A stretch of 63,781 nt of DNA from Candidatus Zixiibacteriota bacterium (GCA_041908405.1 JAYRFH010000250.1:1-63781), one strand, 5' to 3'. Positions 56,725 to 63,690 are shown, counted from the first letter of the stretch. The notes: a model not told the origin generated them from the sequence alone. Numbers and translations: made by a program.

Positions 56725-57084
56725 ATGCGTAGGATCATCTGCATCATGGCACTGGCGTTGCTGCTGGTGGCGACCACCGTTGACCTGGGTCAATCGCGAT
56801 CGCGCCCGTACAATATCGCCGACATCACCAATGGCTCAAGTGGCACAGCCGACGACCACCCGTGGGGTGGCGACGACACTGGCGGTGGCGGGACGAACGG
56901 CAGCGGTCTGGACACGCGTCCGACCCTGATTGTATCGACCGGCAATCCGATCATCGACTATTTCACCTCCCGATTCCTGCGCAGCGGCTTCATGTTGAGA
57001 TGGCATCGGCAGGTAACGACGACAGGAGAGACGACGACTTCGACCACGGGTACCACGGTACCGTCGAACACTCAAGCCAACTAA
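56725..57084 (+). CDS. small secreted Gly/Thr-rich protein of unknown function
   Basis: 119 aa. AAGGAG RBS. Signal peptide MRRIICIMALALLLVATTVDLG. Low-complexity GGDDTGGGGTNGSG and TTTGETTTSTTGTT. Ends 12 nt before the sigma-54 activator gene. Confidence 0.55.
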   Translation: MRRIICIMALALLLVATTVDLGQSRSRPYNIADITNGSSGTADDHPWGGDDTGGGGTNGSGLDTRPTLIVSTGNPIIDYFTSRFLRSGFMLRWHRQVTTTGETTTSTTGTTVPSNTQAN

Positions 57085-57096
57085 GGGTAGCACGTT

Positions 57097-59340
57097 ATGA
57101 AGATGCATGAAACCACAGGCCAGGGATTCTGCGAATCCGTAGCCCATTTCATGACGGCGCTGCTCGAACAACGAGATTTCGCGGCTGTCGTGAAGCAGTA
57201 CGAGCTCCATCGCTCGCTGCTCGATGACGTGGGTGGATCCGCAGCCGGTACGGTCTTGCACCGTGCCGCTACTGCCTATGCGTCTCTTGGCAACTACCCG
57301 ATGGCGTTGCGTGTGGCACGTCTGGCACAAGCGATGATCGCGGCTGAAGGAGACTCTCTCCTTCTGGCGGAGATCTTCGTCACGCTGGGCGGCGTCCTGC
57401 GCGACCTGGGTCAGTTGAAAGAGGCGGAGAAGGCGTTCCGGGATGCTGAGTCTATCTTCCGTCGCAAAGACCACCTTGAAGGACAGAGTCGTGCGCTTAA
57501 CCATCTGGCCGGATTGTATTATCGCCAGACGGATTATCGGAACGCGCTGGCCGTCCTGATGGACGCGGTTGAGATCGCCCAGAAGAACGGCGACAAAAAG
57601 AAACTCGCGTTCATGATGGGGAATATCGGTCGTATCCACACCTTTACCGGTGATATGGCGGAAGCTGAAAAGCACCTGAAGATCAACATTGACCTCTCGC
57701 TCGAGCTCGGCGACCAGATCGAAGTTGCCCGGGCGTATCTGTCGTTCGCGTATGTGTACATTCAGCAGGCTGACTATGCCTCCGCTGAACAGGCGCTAGG
57801 CGAAGCGTACCCCCGCATCCTGATCAGTGTCAGCAAGCGGGATGAGGTCATCTATTACACGTATCTCGGCGAACTGCAGTATCGGGCAGGTCGTCTTGAG
57901 GAATCGCGCGTCGCGTTGGAGCGTGCGTTGCATCTGGCCGAAGAGATCGGCCCGAACACAACGCTCGCGGCCCGCGTCCTGCGCCACCTGGCGGAACTGG
58001 CGATCCGGACAAAGAACCATCGTCTGGCCCAGCGCTACGTCGCCAAAGCGATCCCGGTCTTCCAGAAAGCCGACGACAAAGTCGAGATGGGCGCGCTCTG
58101 GAAACTGAAAGCACAGATAGCGGATATGACGGAACAGAAAGAGGAGTCGGTCGCGTCGTTCAAACGCGCGTTGGATCTTCTGGCTGAATCCGGTGTCCGA
58201 TGGGAGAAAGCGGAGGCACTGGTCGCGGCCGGTTGCTCTCGTTCATTCTCGGCGCGTGAGCGGATGACCTATCTTTTCCGCGCGGAGGAGTTTTATGCCC
58301 GGTGCCATATGGTACGGAAGCATGACGAGATCGGGCGCTTGATCCATGAGCAGGATGACCGGATGGATGTCCCCAATCTTGGGCCAATCCCCAAATCCGC
58401 GGTGGATACCGAGTATTACACGAACTGCGAGAAGATCAAGCAGTTCAAGGCGCAGATCCCGATCCTTGGACGTTCCGACCTGCCCATTCTCCTGACTGGC
58501 GAGACCGGTGTTGGCAAGGATCGTCTGGCGAGTTACTTCCACAGTGTCGTCAGACCGGGGACTCGTTACGTGGCGATAAACTGTGCGTCCATTCCGGAGA
58601 CCCTGCTTGAGTCGGAGCTGTTCGGTTACCGTAAGGGAGCTTTTACCGGCGCTCAGGAGCACAAAGACGGGCTGTTTGTGGAAGCGAATGGCGGCGTACT
58701 CCTCCTCGATGAGATCGGCGACATGCCGCTCGCCCTACAGGCGAAGTTGCTCTCCGTTCTGGAGCACCGTCGCTTGACTCCGCTCGGCGGCACGAAAGAG
58801 GTCGAACTCGATATCAAGATCGTGGTCGCGACCAACCAGAATCTGGAAGAGATGGTGGAGCAAGGAAGATTCCGCCGCGATCTTTACTATCGTTTGAGCG
58901 GACTCTCGTTCCACATCCCGGCGCTCAGAGAGCGGAAAGAGGATATCCCGCTGTTGCTGCAGACCTTCATGCGAAAACGGAAGATGTGCGGCGATGGTCA
59001 GAAACTCCCCGCCGAACTGGTCCGTCAGTTCCTTGAATATGACTGGCCGGGGAATATCCGCGAGCTGGACAACAAGGTGAAACGCCTTGAGGTGATGGCT
59101 CAGATGGTGGCGGAAGGAGATCTGGTTGAGTTGGCGCGGACTATCTTCGCGCCGACCAAGCAGCTTCCCGATAAAGGAAACCTGTTTGACCGGGTCGAAG
59201 AATATGAGCGTCAGCTCATCATGGATGCGTTGATGGCGGCACACGGCAACAAATGCGAGGCGGCTCGGCTGTTGGGTGTGCATGAAGCGACCGTCCGGAT
59301 GAAGCTGAAGCGATACGGGACTCACGGCACGATGCATTGA
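57097..59340 (+). CDS. sigma-54-dependent transcriptional activator with an N-terminal TPR array
   Basis: 747 aa. About 400 aa of TPR-like repeats. AAA+ core with LLTGETGVGKD, ESELFGYRKGAFTGA (GAFTGA) and LLLDEIGDM. Fis-type HTH NKCEAARLLGVHEATVRMKLKRYG. Confidence 0.92.
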   Translation: MKMHETTGQGFCESVAHFMTALLEQRDFAAVVKQYELHRSLLDDVGGSAAGTVLHRAATAYASLGNYPMALRVARLAQAMIAAEGDSLLLAEIFVTLGGVLRDLGQLKEAEKAFRDAESIFRRKDHLEGQSRALNHLAGLYYRQTDYRNALAVLMDAVEIAQKNGDKKKLAFMMGNIGRIHTFTGDMAEAEKHLKINIDLSLELGDQIEVARAYLSFAYVYIQQADYASAEQALGEAYPRILISVSKRDEVIYYTYLGELQYRAGRLEESRVALERALHLAEEIGPNTTLAARVLRHLAELAIRTKNHRLAQRYVAKAIPVFQKADDKVEMGALWKLKAQIADMTEQKEESVASFKRALDLLAESGVRWEKAEALVAAGCSRSFSARERMTYLFRAEEFYARCHMVRKHDEIGRLIHEQDDRMDVPNLGPIPKSAVDTEYYTNCEKIKQFKAQIPILGRSDLPILLTGETGVGKDRLASYFHSVVRPGTRYVAINCASIPETLLESELFGYRKGAFTGAQEHKDGLFVEANGGVLLLDEIGDMPLALQAKLLSVLEHRRLTPLGGTKEVELDIKIVVATNQNLEEMVEQGRFRRDLYYRLSGLSFHIPALRERKEDIPLLLQTFMRKRKMCGDGQKLPAELVRQFLEYDWPGNIRELDNKVKRLEVMAQMVAEGDLVELARTIFAPTKQLPDKGNLFDRVEEYERQLIMDALMAAHGNKCEAARLLGVHEATVRMKLKRYGTHGTMH

Positions 59341-59407
59341 GTGGATGTGAGTTTCTGATAGTGAAGAAGTCGTGATTTAGTACGATTTCCGTTAGTTCTC
59401 CTTGGTT

Positions 59408-59445
59408 ACGGTAAGTGTTTCGTTAAGAGGCACTTACCGTTTTTT
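59408..59445 (+). terminator. rho-independent terminator after the activator gene
   Basis: ACGGTAAGTG-N13-CACTTACCGT followed by TTTTT. Confidence 0.7.
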
Positions 59446-59482
59446 ATGGTCGGCGGTTCGTATGAACATACGAATGGGAGCG

Positions 59483-59498
59483 TGTGAAAAACCGCACA
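59483..59498. promoter_or_regulatory. TGT-N10-ACA dyad, a possible enhancer-binding (UAS) site
   Basis: TGTGAAAAACCGCACA, about 75 bp upstream of the -24 element at 59571. Confidence 0.25.
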
Positions 59499-59570
59499 GG
59501 GTTCGGCGCACATCAGACATATCACTGCACTGCAATATGTTACGAAGGTGATAGCGAAGCGTGCGAAGTC

Positions 59571-59586
59571 GGGCACACGCATTGCT
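59571..59586 (+). promoter_or_regulatory. sigma-54 (-24/-12) promoter-like element
   Basis: GGGCAC-ACGCA-TTGCT with canonical spacing. Lies downstream of the activator terminator and about 190 nt upstream of the BMC-domain gene. Confidence 0.5.
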
Positions 59587-59773
59587 ATTAGGTTTGATGT
59601 CATTTTTACTCCTGAGCGCTGTGTTGGTGCTTAGTAGGTCCTCTTTTCTTTGGTGTATCGAAGCCGTCTGTGCTCGAGGGGAGTACAGGCGGTTAATTTT
59701 TGGTGGCATGCGACCAATGCTCCGCTATATTTGCTCCCGAACAATCTGATTGAAACTACAGGATGGCGCACGG

Positions 59774-60337
59774 ATGGACGCACTCGGGCTTATAGAGACA
59801 ACGAATCTGGCTGGCGCGATGGAAGCATCGACCGCCGCATCGCAGGCCGCCGCGGCTTCGGTCAGTTCAGTCACGTTGATCGATGCTTCGTTTGTGGTGG
59901 TGAAGATCGAAGGAGATATGCCCGCGGTAAGGGCGGCTGTCGAAGCGGGAGCACACGCGGCCCAGCAGTCCGGCTCGCTCATATGCGCGAGAATAATCCC
60001 GCATCGCGAAGGGCCCGGCAAGACAGTGGTCACACGCAAGCGGAGCACTCCGATCGTCGCCAGTTCTCCCACTCCGAAAAAGACATCTCCTCCGGCCAAA
60101 GCTCAGAAAGCGCGGGTGGCGCCAGCCCCGCGCCCTGCGCCCGCTCAACCATCCGCGCCTGCCACTGTCGCGCCGCGCGCAACATCCGGCTCCATGTCGA
60201 TGGAGCAGCTTGAAGCGATGCCGGTCTCCAAGCTCCGGCAGTATGCGCGTGGATTGGCGGGGCTCCCGATCCAGGGACGCCAGATATCGATGGCGAACAA
60301 GCAGCAGTTGCTGGAAGCAATCCGGAAGATCGCCTGA
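59774..60337 (+). CDS. BMC-H (Pfam BMC) domain protein fused via a Pro/Ala/Lys linker to a Rho_N/HeH-like C-terminal module
   Basis: MDALGLIETTNLAGAMEASTAASQAAAASVSSVTLIDASFVVVKIEGDMPAVRAAVEAGAHAAQQSGSLICARIIPH matches the BMC-H consensus. The linker is SSPTPKKTSPPAKAQKARVAPAPRPAPAQPSAPA. The C-terminus MEQLEAMPVSKLRQYARGLAGLPIQGRQISMANKQQLLEAIRK resembles the Rho N-terminal HeH. The alternative TTG start is 59750. Confidence 0.8.
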   Translation: MDALGLIETTNLAGAMEASTAASQAAAASVSSVTLIDASFVVVKIEGDMPAVRAAVEAGAHAAQQSGSLICARIIPHREGPGKTVVTRKRSTPIVASSPTPKKTSPPAKAQKARVAPAPRPAPAQPSAPATVAPRATSGSMSMEQLEAMPVSKLRQYARGLAGLPIQGRQISMANKQQLLEAIRKIA

Positions 60338-60601
60338 TTACTCACAGGTGCCCTGGGCTGTATTCATTGGTGAATTGAACGCGAAACGATGCCAAGCTCG
60401 TCGCCTTCGCGCGTGCTTGGTTGACGGCTAATCCACACAAAATCAATCCCTTTATCCTGATTTATCTTCATCCCCCTTGCGTTACTCTTGTGATTTTTGT
60501 AACTTAGTTCCCGACTGCTCGCAGTCTCGTTTGTGGTGTCCCGCATCAAAGTCAAAGAGGACTGCCGCGGGTAACGTTCTGCTGATAAAGGACTTTCGGA
60601 T

Positions 60602-61573
60602 ATGAAGAAGATGATGGTGACCGGGGCGATCGGGCAGATCGGATCCGAGTTGGTTTCCGCGCTTCGCGCTCGATATGGGGCAGATATGGTTGTAGCGACC
60701 GATATCCGGATGCCCACCGACAAAGAACTTCGCGACAGGGGCCCGTTCGAATTCCTCGATGTCACCGACTCGAATCATATCACCCGCGTCATGTCGATAC
60801 ACGAGATCGGGACGATCTTTCATCTGGCAGCGGTTCTCTCCGCAGTCGGCGAGTCGCGCCCCAATATCGCCTGGCAGATCAATATGAACGGTCTGTATCA
60901 CGTGCTAGAAGCGGCCCGCCAGTACAAATGCCAGATCTTCTTCCCCAGCTCCATCGGCGCATTCGGTTCGAGCACACCGCAGGATCAGACACCACAGGAT
61001 ACGATTCAACGCCCGGACACAATGTACGGCGTCACCAAGGTCGCCGGCGAACTGCTGTGCGATTACTACTTCAAGCGATTCAATGTGGATGCCCGCGGTG
61101 TCCGTTTCCCCGGCCTGATATCTTATGTCGCCGAACCGGGCGGCGGGACGACCGACTATTCGGTCTCGATATTCTATGAAGCTATCCGCCACAAAAAGTT
61201 TGTCTGCTACCTGAGACCGAATACCTATCTCGATATGATGTATATGCCGGACGCGTTGCGCGCGATGATCCAGTTGATGGAAGCCGATGGCGCCAAGCTG
61301 GTCCATCGGAACGCGTTCAATGTCTCGGCGATGAGTTTCACGCCGGATATGCTGGCGGCCGAGATCCGCAAACATATCCCGGAATTTGTGATGGAGTATG
61401 AGATCGATCCGGTCCGTCAGGCGATCGCCGATTCCTGGCCGAATTCGATGGATGACTCCGCCGCCCGCAAGGAATGGGGCTGGAAACCGGAGTATGATCT
61501 GAAGTCCATGACCTCGGATATGCTCAAAGAGATCTCCGCCAAGTTGCAGGGCGAGGTCAAGATCACGCGATAA
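60602..61573 (+). CDS. NAD-dependent epimerase/dehydratase-fold enzyme, SDR-type L-threonine 3-dehydrogenase-like
   Basis: MMVTGAIGQIGSEL, GPFEFLDVTD, FHLAAVLSAVGE and the YGVTKVAGE (YxxxK) motif. Confidence 0.75.
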   Translation: MKKMMVTGAIGQIGSELVSALRARYGADMVVATDIRMPTDKELRDRGPFEFLDVTDSNHITRVMSIHEIGTIFHLAAVLSAVGESRPNIAWQINMNGLYHVLEAARQYKCQIFFPSSIGAFGSSTPQDQTPQDTIQRPDTMYGVTKVAGELLCDYYFKRFNVDARGVRFPGLISYVAEPGGGTTDYSVSIFYEAIRHKKFVCYLRPNTYLDMMYMPDALRAMIQLMEADGAKLVHRNAFNVSAMSFTPDMLAAEIRKHIPEFVMEYEIDPVRQAIADSWPNSMDDSAARKEWGWKPEYDLKSMTSDMLKEISAKLQGEVKITR

Positions 61574-61598
61574 ATATGGCTCTGCGTGGGAGAGCCAC

Positions 61599-62009
61599 GT
61601 GTCTATAGGGATCGGCGTTGATGTAGTCGACGTCGACAGGCTGATCCGAGAGATCGACCGGCAGCCTGAGATCATGCATGATCTGTTCACCGACTCGGAA
61701 CTCGCTGCAAGTCGGGCGGCAGGTCATGCCAGCGCGTTCCTGGCTGGGTGCCTCGCTGTGAAGGAAGCCTTCCTCAAGGCCACCGGCACCGGGTTGCGCG
61801 ACGGAATCGCATTTAGAGATATAGAAATAGTAAGTAACGCTGCAGGTATTTCCGGGATTCGCCTGCAGGGAAAACTCCGTCTTCGGTACGGCGACATCGC
61901 TGCGTCCGAGTGTCGGGTATCCGCCGCGTTCACTGACCATGTGGCTTGCGCTGTAGTAGCGTGGTCACAGGAGGAACGTAGTACGGATGAGCCATTTCGG
62001 AAACTATGA
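61599..62009 (+). CDS. acpS: holo-[acyl-carrier-protein] synthase
   Basis: GTG start. IGIGVDVVDVDRL, FTDSEL and LAGCLAVKEAFLKATGTG. Confidence 0.85.
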   Translation: MSIGIGVDVVDVDRLIREIDRQPEIMHDLFTDSELAASRAAGHASAFLAGCLAVKEAFLKATGTGLRDGIAFRDIEIVSNAAGISGIRLQGKLRLRYGDIAASECRVSAAFTDHVACAVVAWSQEERSTDEPFRKL

Positions 62010-63690
62010 GAACCGCGTAAGGAATTTCTCCTGGTCGCTCGCCGAACAGGAACTTGAGTACACGCCGGGGGGCGTCATCAACATCGGTTGGTACTGCAGC
62101 GACCGTATCTGCAAAAAGGGATTCGGACAGAAAAAAGCCCTCATCTGGGAAGGGACCAGCGCCGAACCCAAGACCTACACTTACAACGACCTTCGACTCA
62201 CCAGTAATACGATCGGGGCATTTTTGCGCTCGCTCGGGATCAAACCCGAAGACCGCGTCTGCCTGTTCATGGATCGCATCCCTGAACTGTATCTCGGATT
62301 CCTGGGTGTGCTCAAGATCGGCGCGGTAGCGCAGCCACTATTCTCCGCGTTTGGCGAAGAGTCGTTGTTTGTCCGACTCGATGACGCCAAAACGCGCGCC
62401 ATCATCACCCAGCGCAAACATGTCGGCAAGGTGCGTAAGATCCTCGACCAGATGCCGTATTTGGAGCATATCATCGTGGTCGACCATGACGGCAAAAAAG
62501 AGCTGAAAGAGCGCGAGATCGCGTTTTCGCTCGAACATGCAAATCCAGTCGAAAACCTCGAATGTCATCCGACCAGAGCGGAATCACCATCGGTATTGCA
62601 TTACACTTCGGGCACGACCGGTCGTCCGAAGGGAGTGCAGCATGTGCACTACTCCCTCATTTCGCAGTACCTGACAGGCAAGTGGGTGCTGGATATTCAT
62701 GATGATGACATCTACTGGTGCACCGCCGACCCCGGTTGGGTGACGGGGACTTCATACGGCATCATCGCGCCATTCGCGCTGGGGGCGACCCAGTGTGTGC
62801 AGGATATCGGTTTCTCCGCGGACAACTGGTACAAGTGGATCGAGAAACAGCGTGTGACTGTCTGGTATTCTGCGCCGACAGCGATCCGTTCGCTGATGAA
62901 AGCAGGCGACGATATCGTGAAGAAGTATGACATGTCTTGCCTGCGGCACCTCGCGTCGGTTGGCGAGCCGCTCAATGCCGAAGCGGTCATCTGGTCGCAG
63001 CGCGTTTTTGACAAGCCATTCCACGACACCTACTGGCAGACCGAGACCGGTTCAATTGTCATCACCAATTTCCCCGGTATGAAAGTCAAACCCGGTTCGA
63101 TGGGCCGTACATTTCCCGGAGTCACCGGCGCGGTGCTTGATCTCAAAACTTATGAGCCGATCACTGAGCCGGGGCGTATTGGCCTTATCGCTCTCAGACC
63201 GGATTGGCCCGCTCTCATGCGCGGCTACTGGTGCAACAAAGAGACCTATGACAAGAAGTTCGTCAATGGGTGGTACTTGCCGGGCGACAGATCATCCATC
63301 GACAAAGAAGGGTACTTCTGGTTCGCGGGACGCGATGATGATATCATCAACACCGCAGGGCATCTAGTTTCGCCATTCGAGGTTGAGTCGGCGCTGTTGG
63401 AGCATCCATCGGTGGCGGAATCCGCGGTGGTCGCCAAGCCGGACGAAGTGAATATGGAAGTGGTGAAAGCGTTTGTCACACTCAAGCCGGGCTTCACGGC
63501 CAGCGACGATCTTGAACTCGATATCATGAATTTCATACGGAAGAAACTCTCCTCCCTGGCGATGCCGCAGGAGATAGAATATGTCCCGACCCTTCCGAAA
63601 ACACGCAGCGGCAAGATCATGCGCCGCCTGCTCCGCGCGCAGGAGTGGGGGGAAGAGATCGGCGATATTTCCACATTGGAAAATGACTAA
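61987..63690 (+). CDS. AMP-forming acyl/acetyl-CoA synthetase (AcsA-type, ~570 aa)
   Basis: YTSGTTGRPKGV, YWQTETG, GDRSSIDKEGYFWFAGRDDDIINTAGHLVSPFEVE and LPKTRSGKIMRR. Overlaps acpS by 23 nt. Confidence 0.85.
   Translation: MSHFGNYENRVRNFSWSLAEQELEYTPGGVINIGWYCSDRICKKGFGQKKALIWEGTSAEPKTYTYNDLRLTSNTIGAFLRSLGIKPEDRVCLFMDRIPELYLGFLGVLKIGAVAQPLFSAFGEESLFVRLDDAKTRAIITQRKHVGKVRKILDQMPYLEHIIVVDHDGKKELKEREIAFSLEHANPVENLECHPTRAESPSVLHYTSGTTGRPKGVQHVHYSLISQYLTGKWVLDIHDDDIYWCTADPGWVTGTSYGIIAPFALGATQCVQDIGFSADNWYKWIEKQRVTVWYSAPTAIRSLMKAGDDIVKKYDMSCLRHLASVGEPLNAEAVIWSQRVFDKPFHDTYWQTETGSIVITNFPGMKVKPGSMGRTFPGVTGAVLDLKTYEPITEPGRIGLIALRPDWPALMRGYWCNKETYDKKFVNGWYLPGDRSSIDKEGYFWFAGRDDDIINTAGHLVSPFEVESALLEHPSVAESAVVAKPDEVNMEVVKAFVTLKPGFTASDDLELDIMNFIRKKLSSLAMPQEIEYVPTLPKTRSGKIMRRLLRAQEWGEEIGDISTLEND

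Follow-up and report, generated by a model that had tools for sequence, protein, structure and literature searches.

An extended BMC-H shell-protein gene with a C-terminal HeH-like domain in a Zixibacteria genome, and the derived clade to which it belongs

The DNA analyzed here, a stretch of 63,781 nt from a Candidatus Zixiibacteriota bacterium (GCA_041908405.1, JAYRFH010000250.1:1-63781) which is referred to as the window, carries a gene for a hexamer-type shell protein of bacterial microcompartments (BMC-H) that is extended by a long linker and a small C-terminal domain similar to the HeH (Rho_N/SAP-like) fold. AGGA is found 11 nt 5' of its ATG, and the homologues share the start Met. The gene is preceded by the gene of a sigma-54 activator and a predicted small RNA, and is followed by a gene for a short-chain dehydrogenase/reductase (SDR); the main features of the locus were collected in Table 1. 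When the 187-aa product was used as the query of a protein search, 121 homologue clusters were obtained, almost all of them with 97-100% query coverage, and the named hits among these were Zixibacteria, GN15 or simply 'bacterium'. The explanation put forward here, with a confidence that stops a little short of even for the explanation as a whole, is that the gene encodes a functional member of a BMC-H shell-protein subfamily characterized by the linker and the HeH-like domain.

Table 1 Features of the extended BMC-H locus (positions counted from the first letter of the window)
Feature	Position	Strand	Remarks
119-aa protein, hydrophobic N-terminus	56725..57084	+	upstream partner of the activator
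TPR-domain sigma-54 enhancer-binding protein, 747 aa	57097..59340	+	conserved upstream neighbour
Sigma-54 promoter (predicted)	59571..59586	+	GGGCACACGCATTGCT; GG-N10-GC
Conserved small RNA (predicted), ~100 nt	59597..59704	+	hairpin 1, CCUCUUUUCUUUGG stretch, GC-rich hairpin, U run
Sigma-70-like promoter candidate (GTGGCA-17-TATATT)	59703..59731	+	consensus scan, 9/12 matches; between RNA terminator and BMC gene
Extended BMC-H gene	59774..60337	+	ORF (open reading frame), 187 aa plus stop; ATG start
BMC-H domain, canonical non-permuted	59780..60004	+	aa 3-77; PF00936
Derived edge residues	T20 59831-59833; Q24 59843-59845; H77 60002-60004	+	PduA-equivalent positions
Disordered basic Pro/Ala/Lys-rich linker	60014..60205	+	aa 81-144; AlphaFold2 pLDDT ~50
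HeH (Rho_N/SAP-like) domain	60206..60328	+	aa 145-185; motif LE..PV.KLR.YAR....LPIQGRQISMANKQQLLEAI

The N-terminal part of the protein was matched by PF00936 with 47.8 bits at aa 3-77 (E 1.4e-12; model positions 1-74 of 75), for a Pfam gathering score of 24.5, and the EutM, EutK and CsoS1 models of NCBIfam were distant matches far under their cut-offs. In the AlphaFold2 (AF2) model of the full protein, which was built from a 104-sequence family alignment, the BMC domain had a pLDDT of 92-98 and the secondary-structure order E-H-E-E-H-E. Foldseek matched this domain to EutM, PduA, CutN, CsoS1 and a Haliangium BMC-H, with target TM-scores of 0.83-0.87 and a root-mean-square deviation (rmsd) of about 1 Å. 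Since the Foldseek matches and the AF2 model agree on the fold, the first domain is a canonical, non-permuted BMC-H; a first-pass annotation of this DNA had read its sequence as a divergent BMC-H fold. PduA, EutM and CutN have the same fold (rmsd ~1 Å over 76-80 residues, 35-42% identity), but in the window protein their K26/N29/R79 are replaced by Q/A/H and the pore motif GSG by DAS, and 110 extra residues follow at the C-terminus.

The extra residues comprise the linker and a second folded domain. In the window protein, the linker has a net charge of +10 and 72% of its residues are P, A, K, S or T, and in the full-length model aa 81-140 had a low pLDDT of about 50; across the family the medians are 93 aa for linker length and +7 for charge, and 86% of the linkers are positive. 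Such a Pro/Ala/Lys composition recalls histone-H1-like and PAKKA tails. The last 45 residues formed a second confident domain in the full-length model (pLDDT 91-96), and the C-terminal domain modelled alone reached a pLDDT of 92.2. The score of Rho_N (PF07498, gathering score 24.9) was 17 bits when the whole protein was searched and 21.9 bits (E 1.7e-4) for the C-terminal domain alone; as neither value reaches the gathering score, the HeH signal is a consistent sub-threshold one and not a formal Pfam hit. Among 36 diverse family members, 29 matched Rho_N (E no higher than 1, the best being 2.7e-5) and 11 matched SAP, while PF16365 (EutK_C) matched neither the window protein nor any of the 36 C-terminal domains. 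The top PDB matches of the C-terminal domain in Foldseek were the N-terminal helix bundle of Escherichia coli Rho (9ff7_A and 6wa8_B; TM 0.62, rmsd 2-3 Å, 24-30% identity, probability 0.90, E 0.68). Taken from sequence and model, these results are consistent with an HeH (Rho_N/SAP-like) assignment that stays below threshold. Thus, the architecture proposed in the first-pass annotation, a BMC-H domain joined by a linker to an HeH/Rho_N-like module, is real; the Rho_N resemblance itself is a signal seen across the family but below the gathering score in the window protein, and the Rho fold match is not significant.

This module was shown to be the most constrained part of the extended BMC-H protein, the mean pairwise identity in the family being 71.5% for the C-terminal domain versus 55.4% for the BMC domain. 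The segment LPIQGRQISMANKQQLLEAI is almost invariant across the family, the invariant residues of the domain include R155, R159, G168, R169, S172 and N175, and K176 is found in at least 90% of the members. The net charge of the domain is positive in all family members.

The PduA-equivalent edge residues were tabulated for every extended BMC-H in more than 80 collected loci (L numbers below). In the alignment with PduA, D22/K26/N29/R79 correspond to T20/Q24/A27/H77 of the window protein and the pore GSG to DAS. The missing tiling Lys noted in the first pass is therefore confirmed on proper alignment (Q24), with D22 and R79 replaced as well. PDB entries catalogue K26A and K26D of PduA as 'edge mutations', and in entry 4p2s an Asn-Arg-Lys triad is reported as 'essential to assembly of the shell'. 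The D-K...R edge is kept by essentially all extended BMC-H proteins in the tabulated loci, and a T-Q...H or T-H...K edge is limited to the window, L001-3, L009, L089 and L090. These constitute the window's clade, in which L001-3 and L009 are 91%, L089 77% and L090 59% identical to the window protein. The derived edge 'EASTAASQAA' is preserved among the closer clade members, and the ORF is intact in all clade members, down to 59% identity. Compared with the window, the dN/dS values were 0.017 (L001), 0.033 (L089) and 0.18 (L090) for the BMC domain and 0.03, 0.09 and 0.13, respectively, for the HeH domain; for the linker they were 0.27 (L001) and 0.48 (L089), the synonymous sites of L090 being saturated. 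Both folded domains are under strong purifying selection in the clade, and with such low values the gene is not decaying. Together with the conserved derived edge, this selection indicates that the clade keeps a working protein in which the canonical inter-hexamer contacts have been replaced.

The gene is also solitary at its locus. Neither a second BMC domain nor a BMC-P gene was found in the 63.8-kb window using tblastn and HMMs, and tblastn returned no homologue there of glycyl radical enzyme (GRE), GRE activase, EutP, EutJ, PduS, PduT, EutQ, aldehyde dehydrogenase (AldDH) or phosphotransacylase (PTAC), which agrees with the first-pass observation that no other shell or signature-enzyme gene is present. 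No shell gene lies within 60 kb upstream of the gene in the window, and no other one within 10 kb on either side in L001, L089 and L090. When a BMC-P profile was searched against 5.8 billion proteins, none of the 120 hits listed (of 2038) was tied to contigs of the clade, a search of little power as the listed hits were 75-100% identical. The 'orphan' status applies to the 63.8 kb of the window. The window's clade is thus a derived variant, solitary at its locus, with the tiling residues lost and the HeH module intact.

In the first-pass annotation, a repurposed role outside a compartment, or that of a satellite shell protein with a novel anchoring function, was suggested for the fusion. A one-off repurposing did not survive the database comparison, in which the fusion proved to be a large multi-phylum subfamily that resides in ordinary BMC loci and nearly always has the D-K...R edge. 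When one genome of each GTDB species was scanned, relatives were encoded in at least 554 stretches, from Zixibacteria, Ignavibacteria, Melioribacter, Chlorobi, Bacteroidota, Rhodothermales, Calditrichota, KSB1, LCP-89, Gemmatimonadota and Planctomycetota, and from Firmicutes such as Desulfosporosinus, Desulfotomaculum, Desulfitobacterium, Thermincola and Sporomusa malonica DSM 5090. With the C-terminal domain alone as a profile, 746 cluster representatives (50% identity) were matched, 296 with an E no higher than 1e-10, and the domain was always C-terminal. For 133 listed representatives of this search that had not previously been collected, a BMC domain was detectable in 90, and the remaining 43 were mostly short fragments.

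Three genomic settings were distinguished. In group C (Firmicutes), the extended BMC-H gene lies within a complete glycyl-radical-enzyme microcompartment (GRM) locus; that of Sporomusa contains, in order, GRE, activase, BMC, EutP, EutJ-like, BMC, BMC-P, PduS, PduT, EutQ, the extended BMC-H, AldDH, PTAC, BMC-H, and a PocR kinase and regulator. In group B (FCB-group phyla, Gemmatimonadota and KSB1; Ignavibacteria and Bacteroidota are among the taxa), the gene directly follows that of a canonical 99-aa BMC-H, which is itself 85-99% conserved. In group A (Zixibacteria, GN15, Calditrichota and the window), it lies 3' of a 750-aa TPR sigma-54 activator. Within group A, activator, small RNA, extended BMC-H, BMC-P, PduS and PduT follow one another in L014, L015, L016, L025 and L173, BMC-P follows the extended BMC-H in L005 and L039, and in L004, L091, L092 and the window clade the extended BMC-H is the sole shell gene within reach. 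PduS/T co-occur with the extended BMC-H in 19 loci. The subfamily was thereby shown to be embedded in genuine microcompartment loci in several phyla. Two variations of these loci were also observed. An extra helical segment before the HeH domain (e.g. KEGVDAFVQEFGLEKS) is common, together with canonical D-K...R edges, to the Firmicutes GRM loci L053 (Sporomusa malonica DSM 5090, NZ_CP155572.1 251994-272533), L028, L032, L054, L057, L065 and L074. In the solitary group-A loci L089 (10607-10888), L004 (10755-10913) and L091 (10751-10906), the extended BMC-H is directly followed not by BMC-P but by a short hydrophobic ORF of 51-93 aa, predicted to be membrane-like; the corresponding 264-nt gap of the window is without a short hydrophobic ORF.

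It has been reported that the shell genes of FRAG-type BMCs can be spread over as many as six places of a genome, with no enzymes identified (Sutter et al. 2021, Nat Commun 12:3809), and that an extended BMC-H belongs to FRAG1, whose scattered loci contain shell genes only and occur in Ignavibacteria, Bacteroidota, Chlorobi and related groups (Sutter et al. 2021, Suppl. Data 2). The order seen in group B, where the extended form comes directly after a canonical BMC-H, agrees with the FRAG1 extended BMC-H, and full-length homology (97-99% coverage) connects the window protein with the proteins encoded right behind a canonical BMC-H in such genomes. The window copy differs from FRAG1 in that it has no adjoining canonical BMC-H, follows a sigma-54 activator and a small RNA, and lacks the D-K...R edge. 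In the 2021 catalogue the domain was not identified as HeH/Rho_N-like and its presence in Firmicutes GRM loci was not noted, and literature searches for later work on FRAG1, or for shell proteins with Rho_N/SAP domains, found nothing beyond that catalogue. The fusion is therefore widespread and already catalogued, without an assigned function. With FRAG-type shell genes dispersed in this way, being an orphan in 63 kb does not imply a role outside a compartment.

Other systems share single traits with the window protein. In EutK, reported to be monomeric or non-tiling, a BMC-H is likewise linked to a small and basic helical domain with a presumed role in nucleic-acid binding, but the C-terminal domains are unrelated by sequence, EutK having a helix-turn-helix (PF16365) where an HeH is found here, and the taxonomic range and the loci differ. 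PduK and CmcE are minor shell hexamers with C-terminal extensions of 40-70 aa; the PduK tail, however, has a Cys-rich Fe-S motif, which the window protein lacks. The N-terminus of Rho and the SAP and LEM domains show the same pattern L..L...PV..L...A...G......K..L...I and gave the best Pfam and Foldseek matches, whereas the window domain has a loop longer by 5 residues, is C-terminal and is not accompanied by the Rho OB-fold. The OB-fold is the actual primary RNA-binding site of Rho. In Ralstonia eutropha, the PAKKA-rich tail of PhaM ties polyhydroxybutyrate granules to the nucleoid; PhaM, too, is a protein that coats an intracellular body and has a Pro/Ala/Lys-rich cationic tail, and may thus serve as an analogy for nucleoid tethering, but it has no sequence or fold relationship with the window protein.

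Upstream of the gene, the activator is a conserved neighbour, its orthologues being 54-61% identical in every group-A locus. In the orthologous loci it has the Pfam domains TPR_12/TPR_MalT, Sigma54_activat and HTH_8, and its NCBIfam matches to sigma-54 regulators are all under the equivalog cut-offs. A protein of ~120 aa always precedes it by 0-13 nt in the Zixibacteria-like loci (L001, L004, L005, L015, L025 and L089-92); the 119-aa copy of the window has no Pfam or NCBIfam family, and the protein is possibly a sensor partner of the activator. Genes for an HhH-GPD glycosylase and Wzy_C are also conserved upstream in the Zixibacteria-like loci. A strong terminator-like hairpin (14 pairs and a T run) is located at 59408-59440 (+), 68 nt past the stop codon of the activator gene, and separates the activator transcript from the sigma-54-driven RNA. 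The predicted sigma-54 element has equivalently placed counterparts of the form YGGCAY-N5-TTGCT in L004, L005, L011, L014-16, L025, L039 and L089-92, the form given for other group-A loci being TGGCAC-N5-TTGCT. Another candidate, TGGCATGCGACCAATGCT at ~59705, was ruled out as a sigma-54 promoter because of its wrong spacing (GG-N12-GC).

The predicted small RNA has a variable first hairpin, then the single-stranded CCUCUUUUCUUUGG stretch, which resembles the anti-Shine-Dalgarno tail of 16S rRNA, and then a GC-rich second hairpin with the invariant loop UCGAGGGGAG and a U run; a terminator-like site was located within it at 59662-59694. The fold z-score of the window copy was -3.65, and RNAalifold found 8 stem pairs with compensatory double changes in the alignment. 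Copies were found in L004 (9805-9930) and L005 (9804-9925) and also in L011, L014-16, L025, L039 and L089-92; they are confined to loci with the TPR-sigma54 activator, and are conserved at the DNA level even between loci whose BMC proteins share just ~40% identity. A search of 59300-60650 against Rfam gave as its sole match a chance CRISPR-DR10 (E 0.68), and no target site of the CU-rich stretch beyond chance was found in the window. A pattern scan of JGI metagenomes gave 93 matches, of which ~25 had the sigma-54 promoter, and also the activator where the upstream room allows. Most of these ~25 copies precede an extended BMC-H, but those in the metagenome contigs L149, L162, L163, L130 and L142, where activator and RNA are both present, do not. 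The RNA was thus ruled out as an obligatory leader of the BMC gene, and the tight pair is therefore activator and RNA, with the BMC gene as the usual neighbour. By analogy, this pair looks like a LuxO-Qrr-type layout. It is possible that the BMC gene has its own sigma-70-type promoter, as suggested by the consensus scan (Table 1); the block with TATATT is conserved in the clade loci L089 and L090.

Downstream, the SDR gene (60602-61573) lies 265 nt behind the extended BMC-H gene. At 60602-63690 (+) and beyond (L001 10828-15467), this SDR, of the epimerase/dehydratase family, heads a conserved gene run with a holo-ACP synthase, an acetate-CoA-ligase-type enzyme, an 81-aa (ACP-sized) ORF and an enzyme with the class I/II aminotransferase fold. 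The acetate-CoA-ligase-type enzyme scored 749.8 bits against an NCBIfam cut-off of 729. In its make-up the run resembles plain threonine catabolism less than it does a pathway for amino-lipids or oxoamines that depends on an acyl carrier.

How the HeH module might act can be considered from the geometry of the shell. In solved shells, for example the Haliangium shell 5v74, the termini of BMC-H lie on the concave face, which faces the cytosol. With the C-termini on this face and a tail of 60-130 residues unable to pass the pore, the HeH domains would be displayed outward, six per hexamer, on flexible polycationic tethers. Most likely they would anchor the hexamer or the shell to a partner in the cytosol that is polyanionic or universally conserved. 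The cationic linker and domain suggest a polyanion, most simply nucleic acid or the nucleoid, which is our best guess for the partner and would tether or position the compartment; nucleic-acid binding by the HeH domain is put forward here as a hypothesis. As for the window clade, the loss of D22, K26 and R79 makes extended homotypic sheets unlikely, the altered edges probably preventing them, and the protein may form free hexamers, small patches or a minor, edge-modified shell component, and not the main facet tile.

Several facts weigh against the HeH assignment and the nucleic-acid partner. Besides the Rho_N match to the window protein below the gathering score, the Foldseek E-values are 0.68 or worse, which is without significance for a domain of this length, and a sequence-profile search of the PDB with the C-terminal domain gave chance lysozyme matches alone (E ~0.5). 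The near-invariant non-basic residues (IQG.QIS.AN) exceed the needs of DNA binding through the backbone only, and a specific protein or shell surface would account for their near-invariance no less well. Contacts between proteins are likewise mediated by HeH folds, HeH/LEM domains being established protein binders. As a rival to be taken seriously, if on the unlikely side, the C-terminal domain may be a protein-docking module, for the conserved concave face of neighbouring hexamers (as a cross-link or gate) or for a conserved cytosolic partner such as a PduS/T redox partner or a positioning ATPase. The extreme conservation of the non-basic residues across phyla, the conserved partner BMC-H of group B and the co-occurrence with PduS/T point in that direction. 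However, the domain stays almost unchanged in the window clade, although this has no partner shell gene close by; the cationic character of linker and domain is consistent and favours a polyanion, and no co-varying partner was identified. Furthermore, the solitary group-A copies L004, L091 and L092 retain K26, and a solitary gene therefore does not by itself imply a non-tiling protein. The gene might be a satellite shell gene of the ordinary kind, belonging to a dispersed (FRAG-like) microcompartment, with BMC-P, a standard BMC-H and PduS/T elsewhere in the genome and a T/Q/H edge that co-evolved with its neighbours. We lean away from this possibility, while giving it considerable room: the extended BMC-H is a regular component of the scattered FRAG loci, relatives carry an adjoining BMC-P-PduS-PduT or canonical BMC-H, and the strong purifying selection on the BMC domain together with the conserved edge points to a maintained interface. 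Nevertheless, D22, K26 and R79, all lost in the clade, are kept by essentially every other member, including those of dispersed loci, and no shell gene was found 60 kb upstream in the window or within 10 kb on either side in L001, L089 and L090.

Two further explanations have very little probability left. According to one, a microcompartment operon was lost and the gene is its decaying remainder, without a current function, as might be thought from the missing BMC-P, PduS and PduT at the locus and the lost tiling residues; it is effectively refuted by the low dN/dS (0.017-0.18 for BMC, 0.03-0.13 for HeH) and the ORF intact in all clade members. According to the other, which was already marked as speculative in the first pass and is just as hard to credit, the protein is a shell component of an amino-alcohol/aminoacetone-type compartment with the adjacent threonine dehydrogenase-like SDR. 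The SDR adjoins the BMC gene in the window and is also near it in L004, L010 and L091, followed by an aminotransferase-class gene. But four unrelated genes stand between the two in L089 and L090, the SDR is missing from the BMC-P-containing loci and reaches no NCBIfam equivalog cut-off, and there is no aldehyde dehydrogenase, PTAC or sign of an encapsulation peptide. With the synteny broken in L089 and L090, and with an SDR that travels with the holo-ACP synthase/ligase/aminotransferase cluster, the SDR was rejected as a functional partner of the BMC protein; the adjacency is lineage synteny and not a compartment pathway.

The first-pass idea of a non-tiling hub for nucleic acid possibly applies to the window's clade only. 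In a stronger version of it, the BMC-H of this lineage would have left the organelle, in a genome without any other shell gene, and the hexamer, without its tiling residues, would be a free six-armed hub that binds the nucleoid or RNA by means of its cationic tethers and HeH domains. A functional coupling to the neighbouring module of sigma-54 activator and small RNA is conceivable in this version. We regard it as rather improbable; if true, it would be a first case in nature of a shell fold of microcompartments that has been put to use outside a compartment.

For the explanation preferred here, a functional BMC-H subfamily with an outward HeH-like domain on a polycationic tether, the hypothesis follows that this module anchors or positions microcompartments on nucleic acid or a conserved partner. 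This bears on the role of FRAG-type compartments and on the positioning and inheritance of non-carboxysomal microcompartments. Since the subfamily includes cultured Sporomusa, Desulfosporosinus and Melioribacter, the HeH hypothesis is testable there, and the window clade, with its tiling residues lost and its HeH kept, may be regarded as a natural separation-of-function variant for the HeH module.

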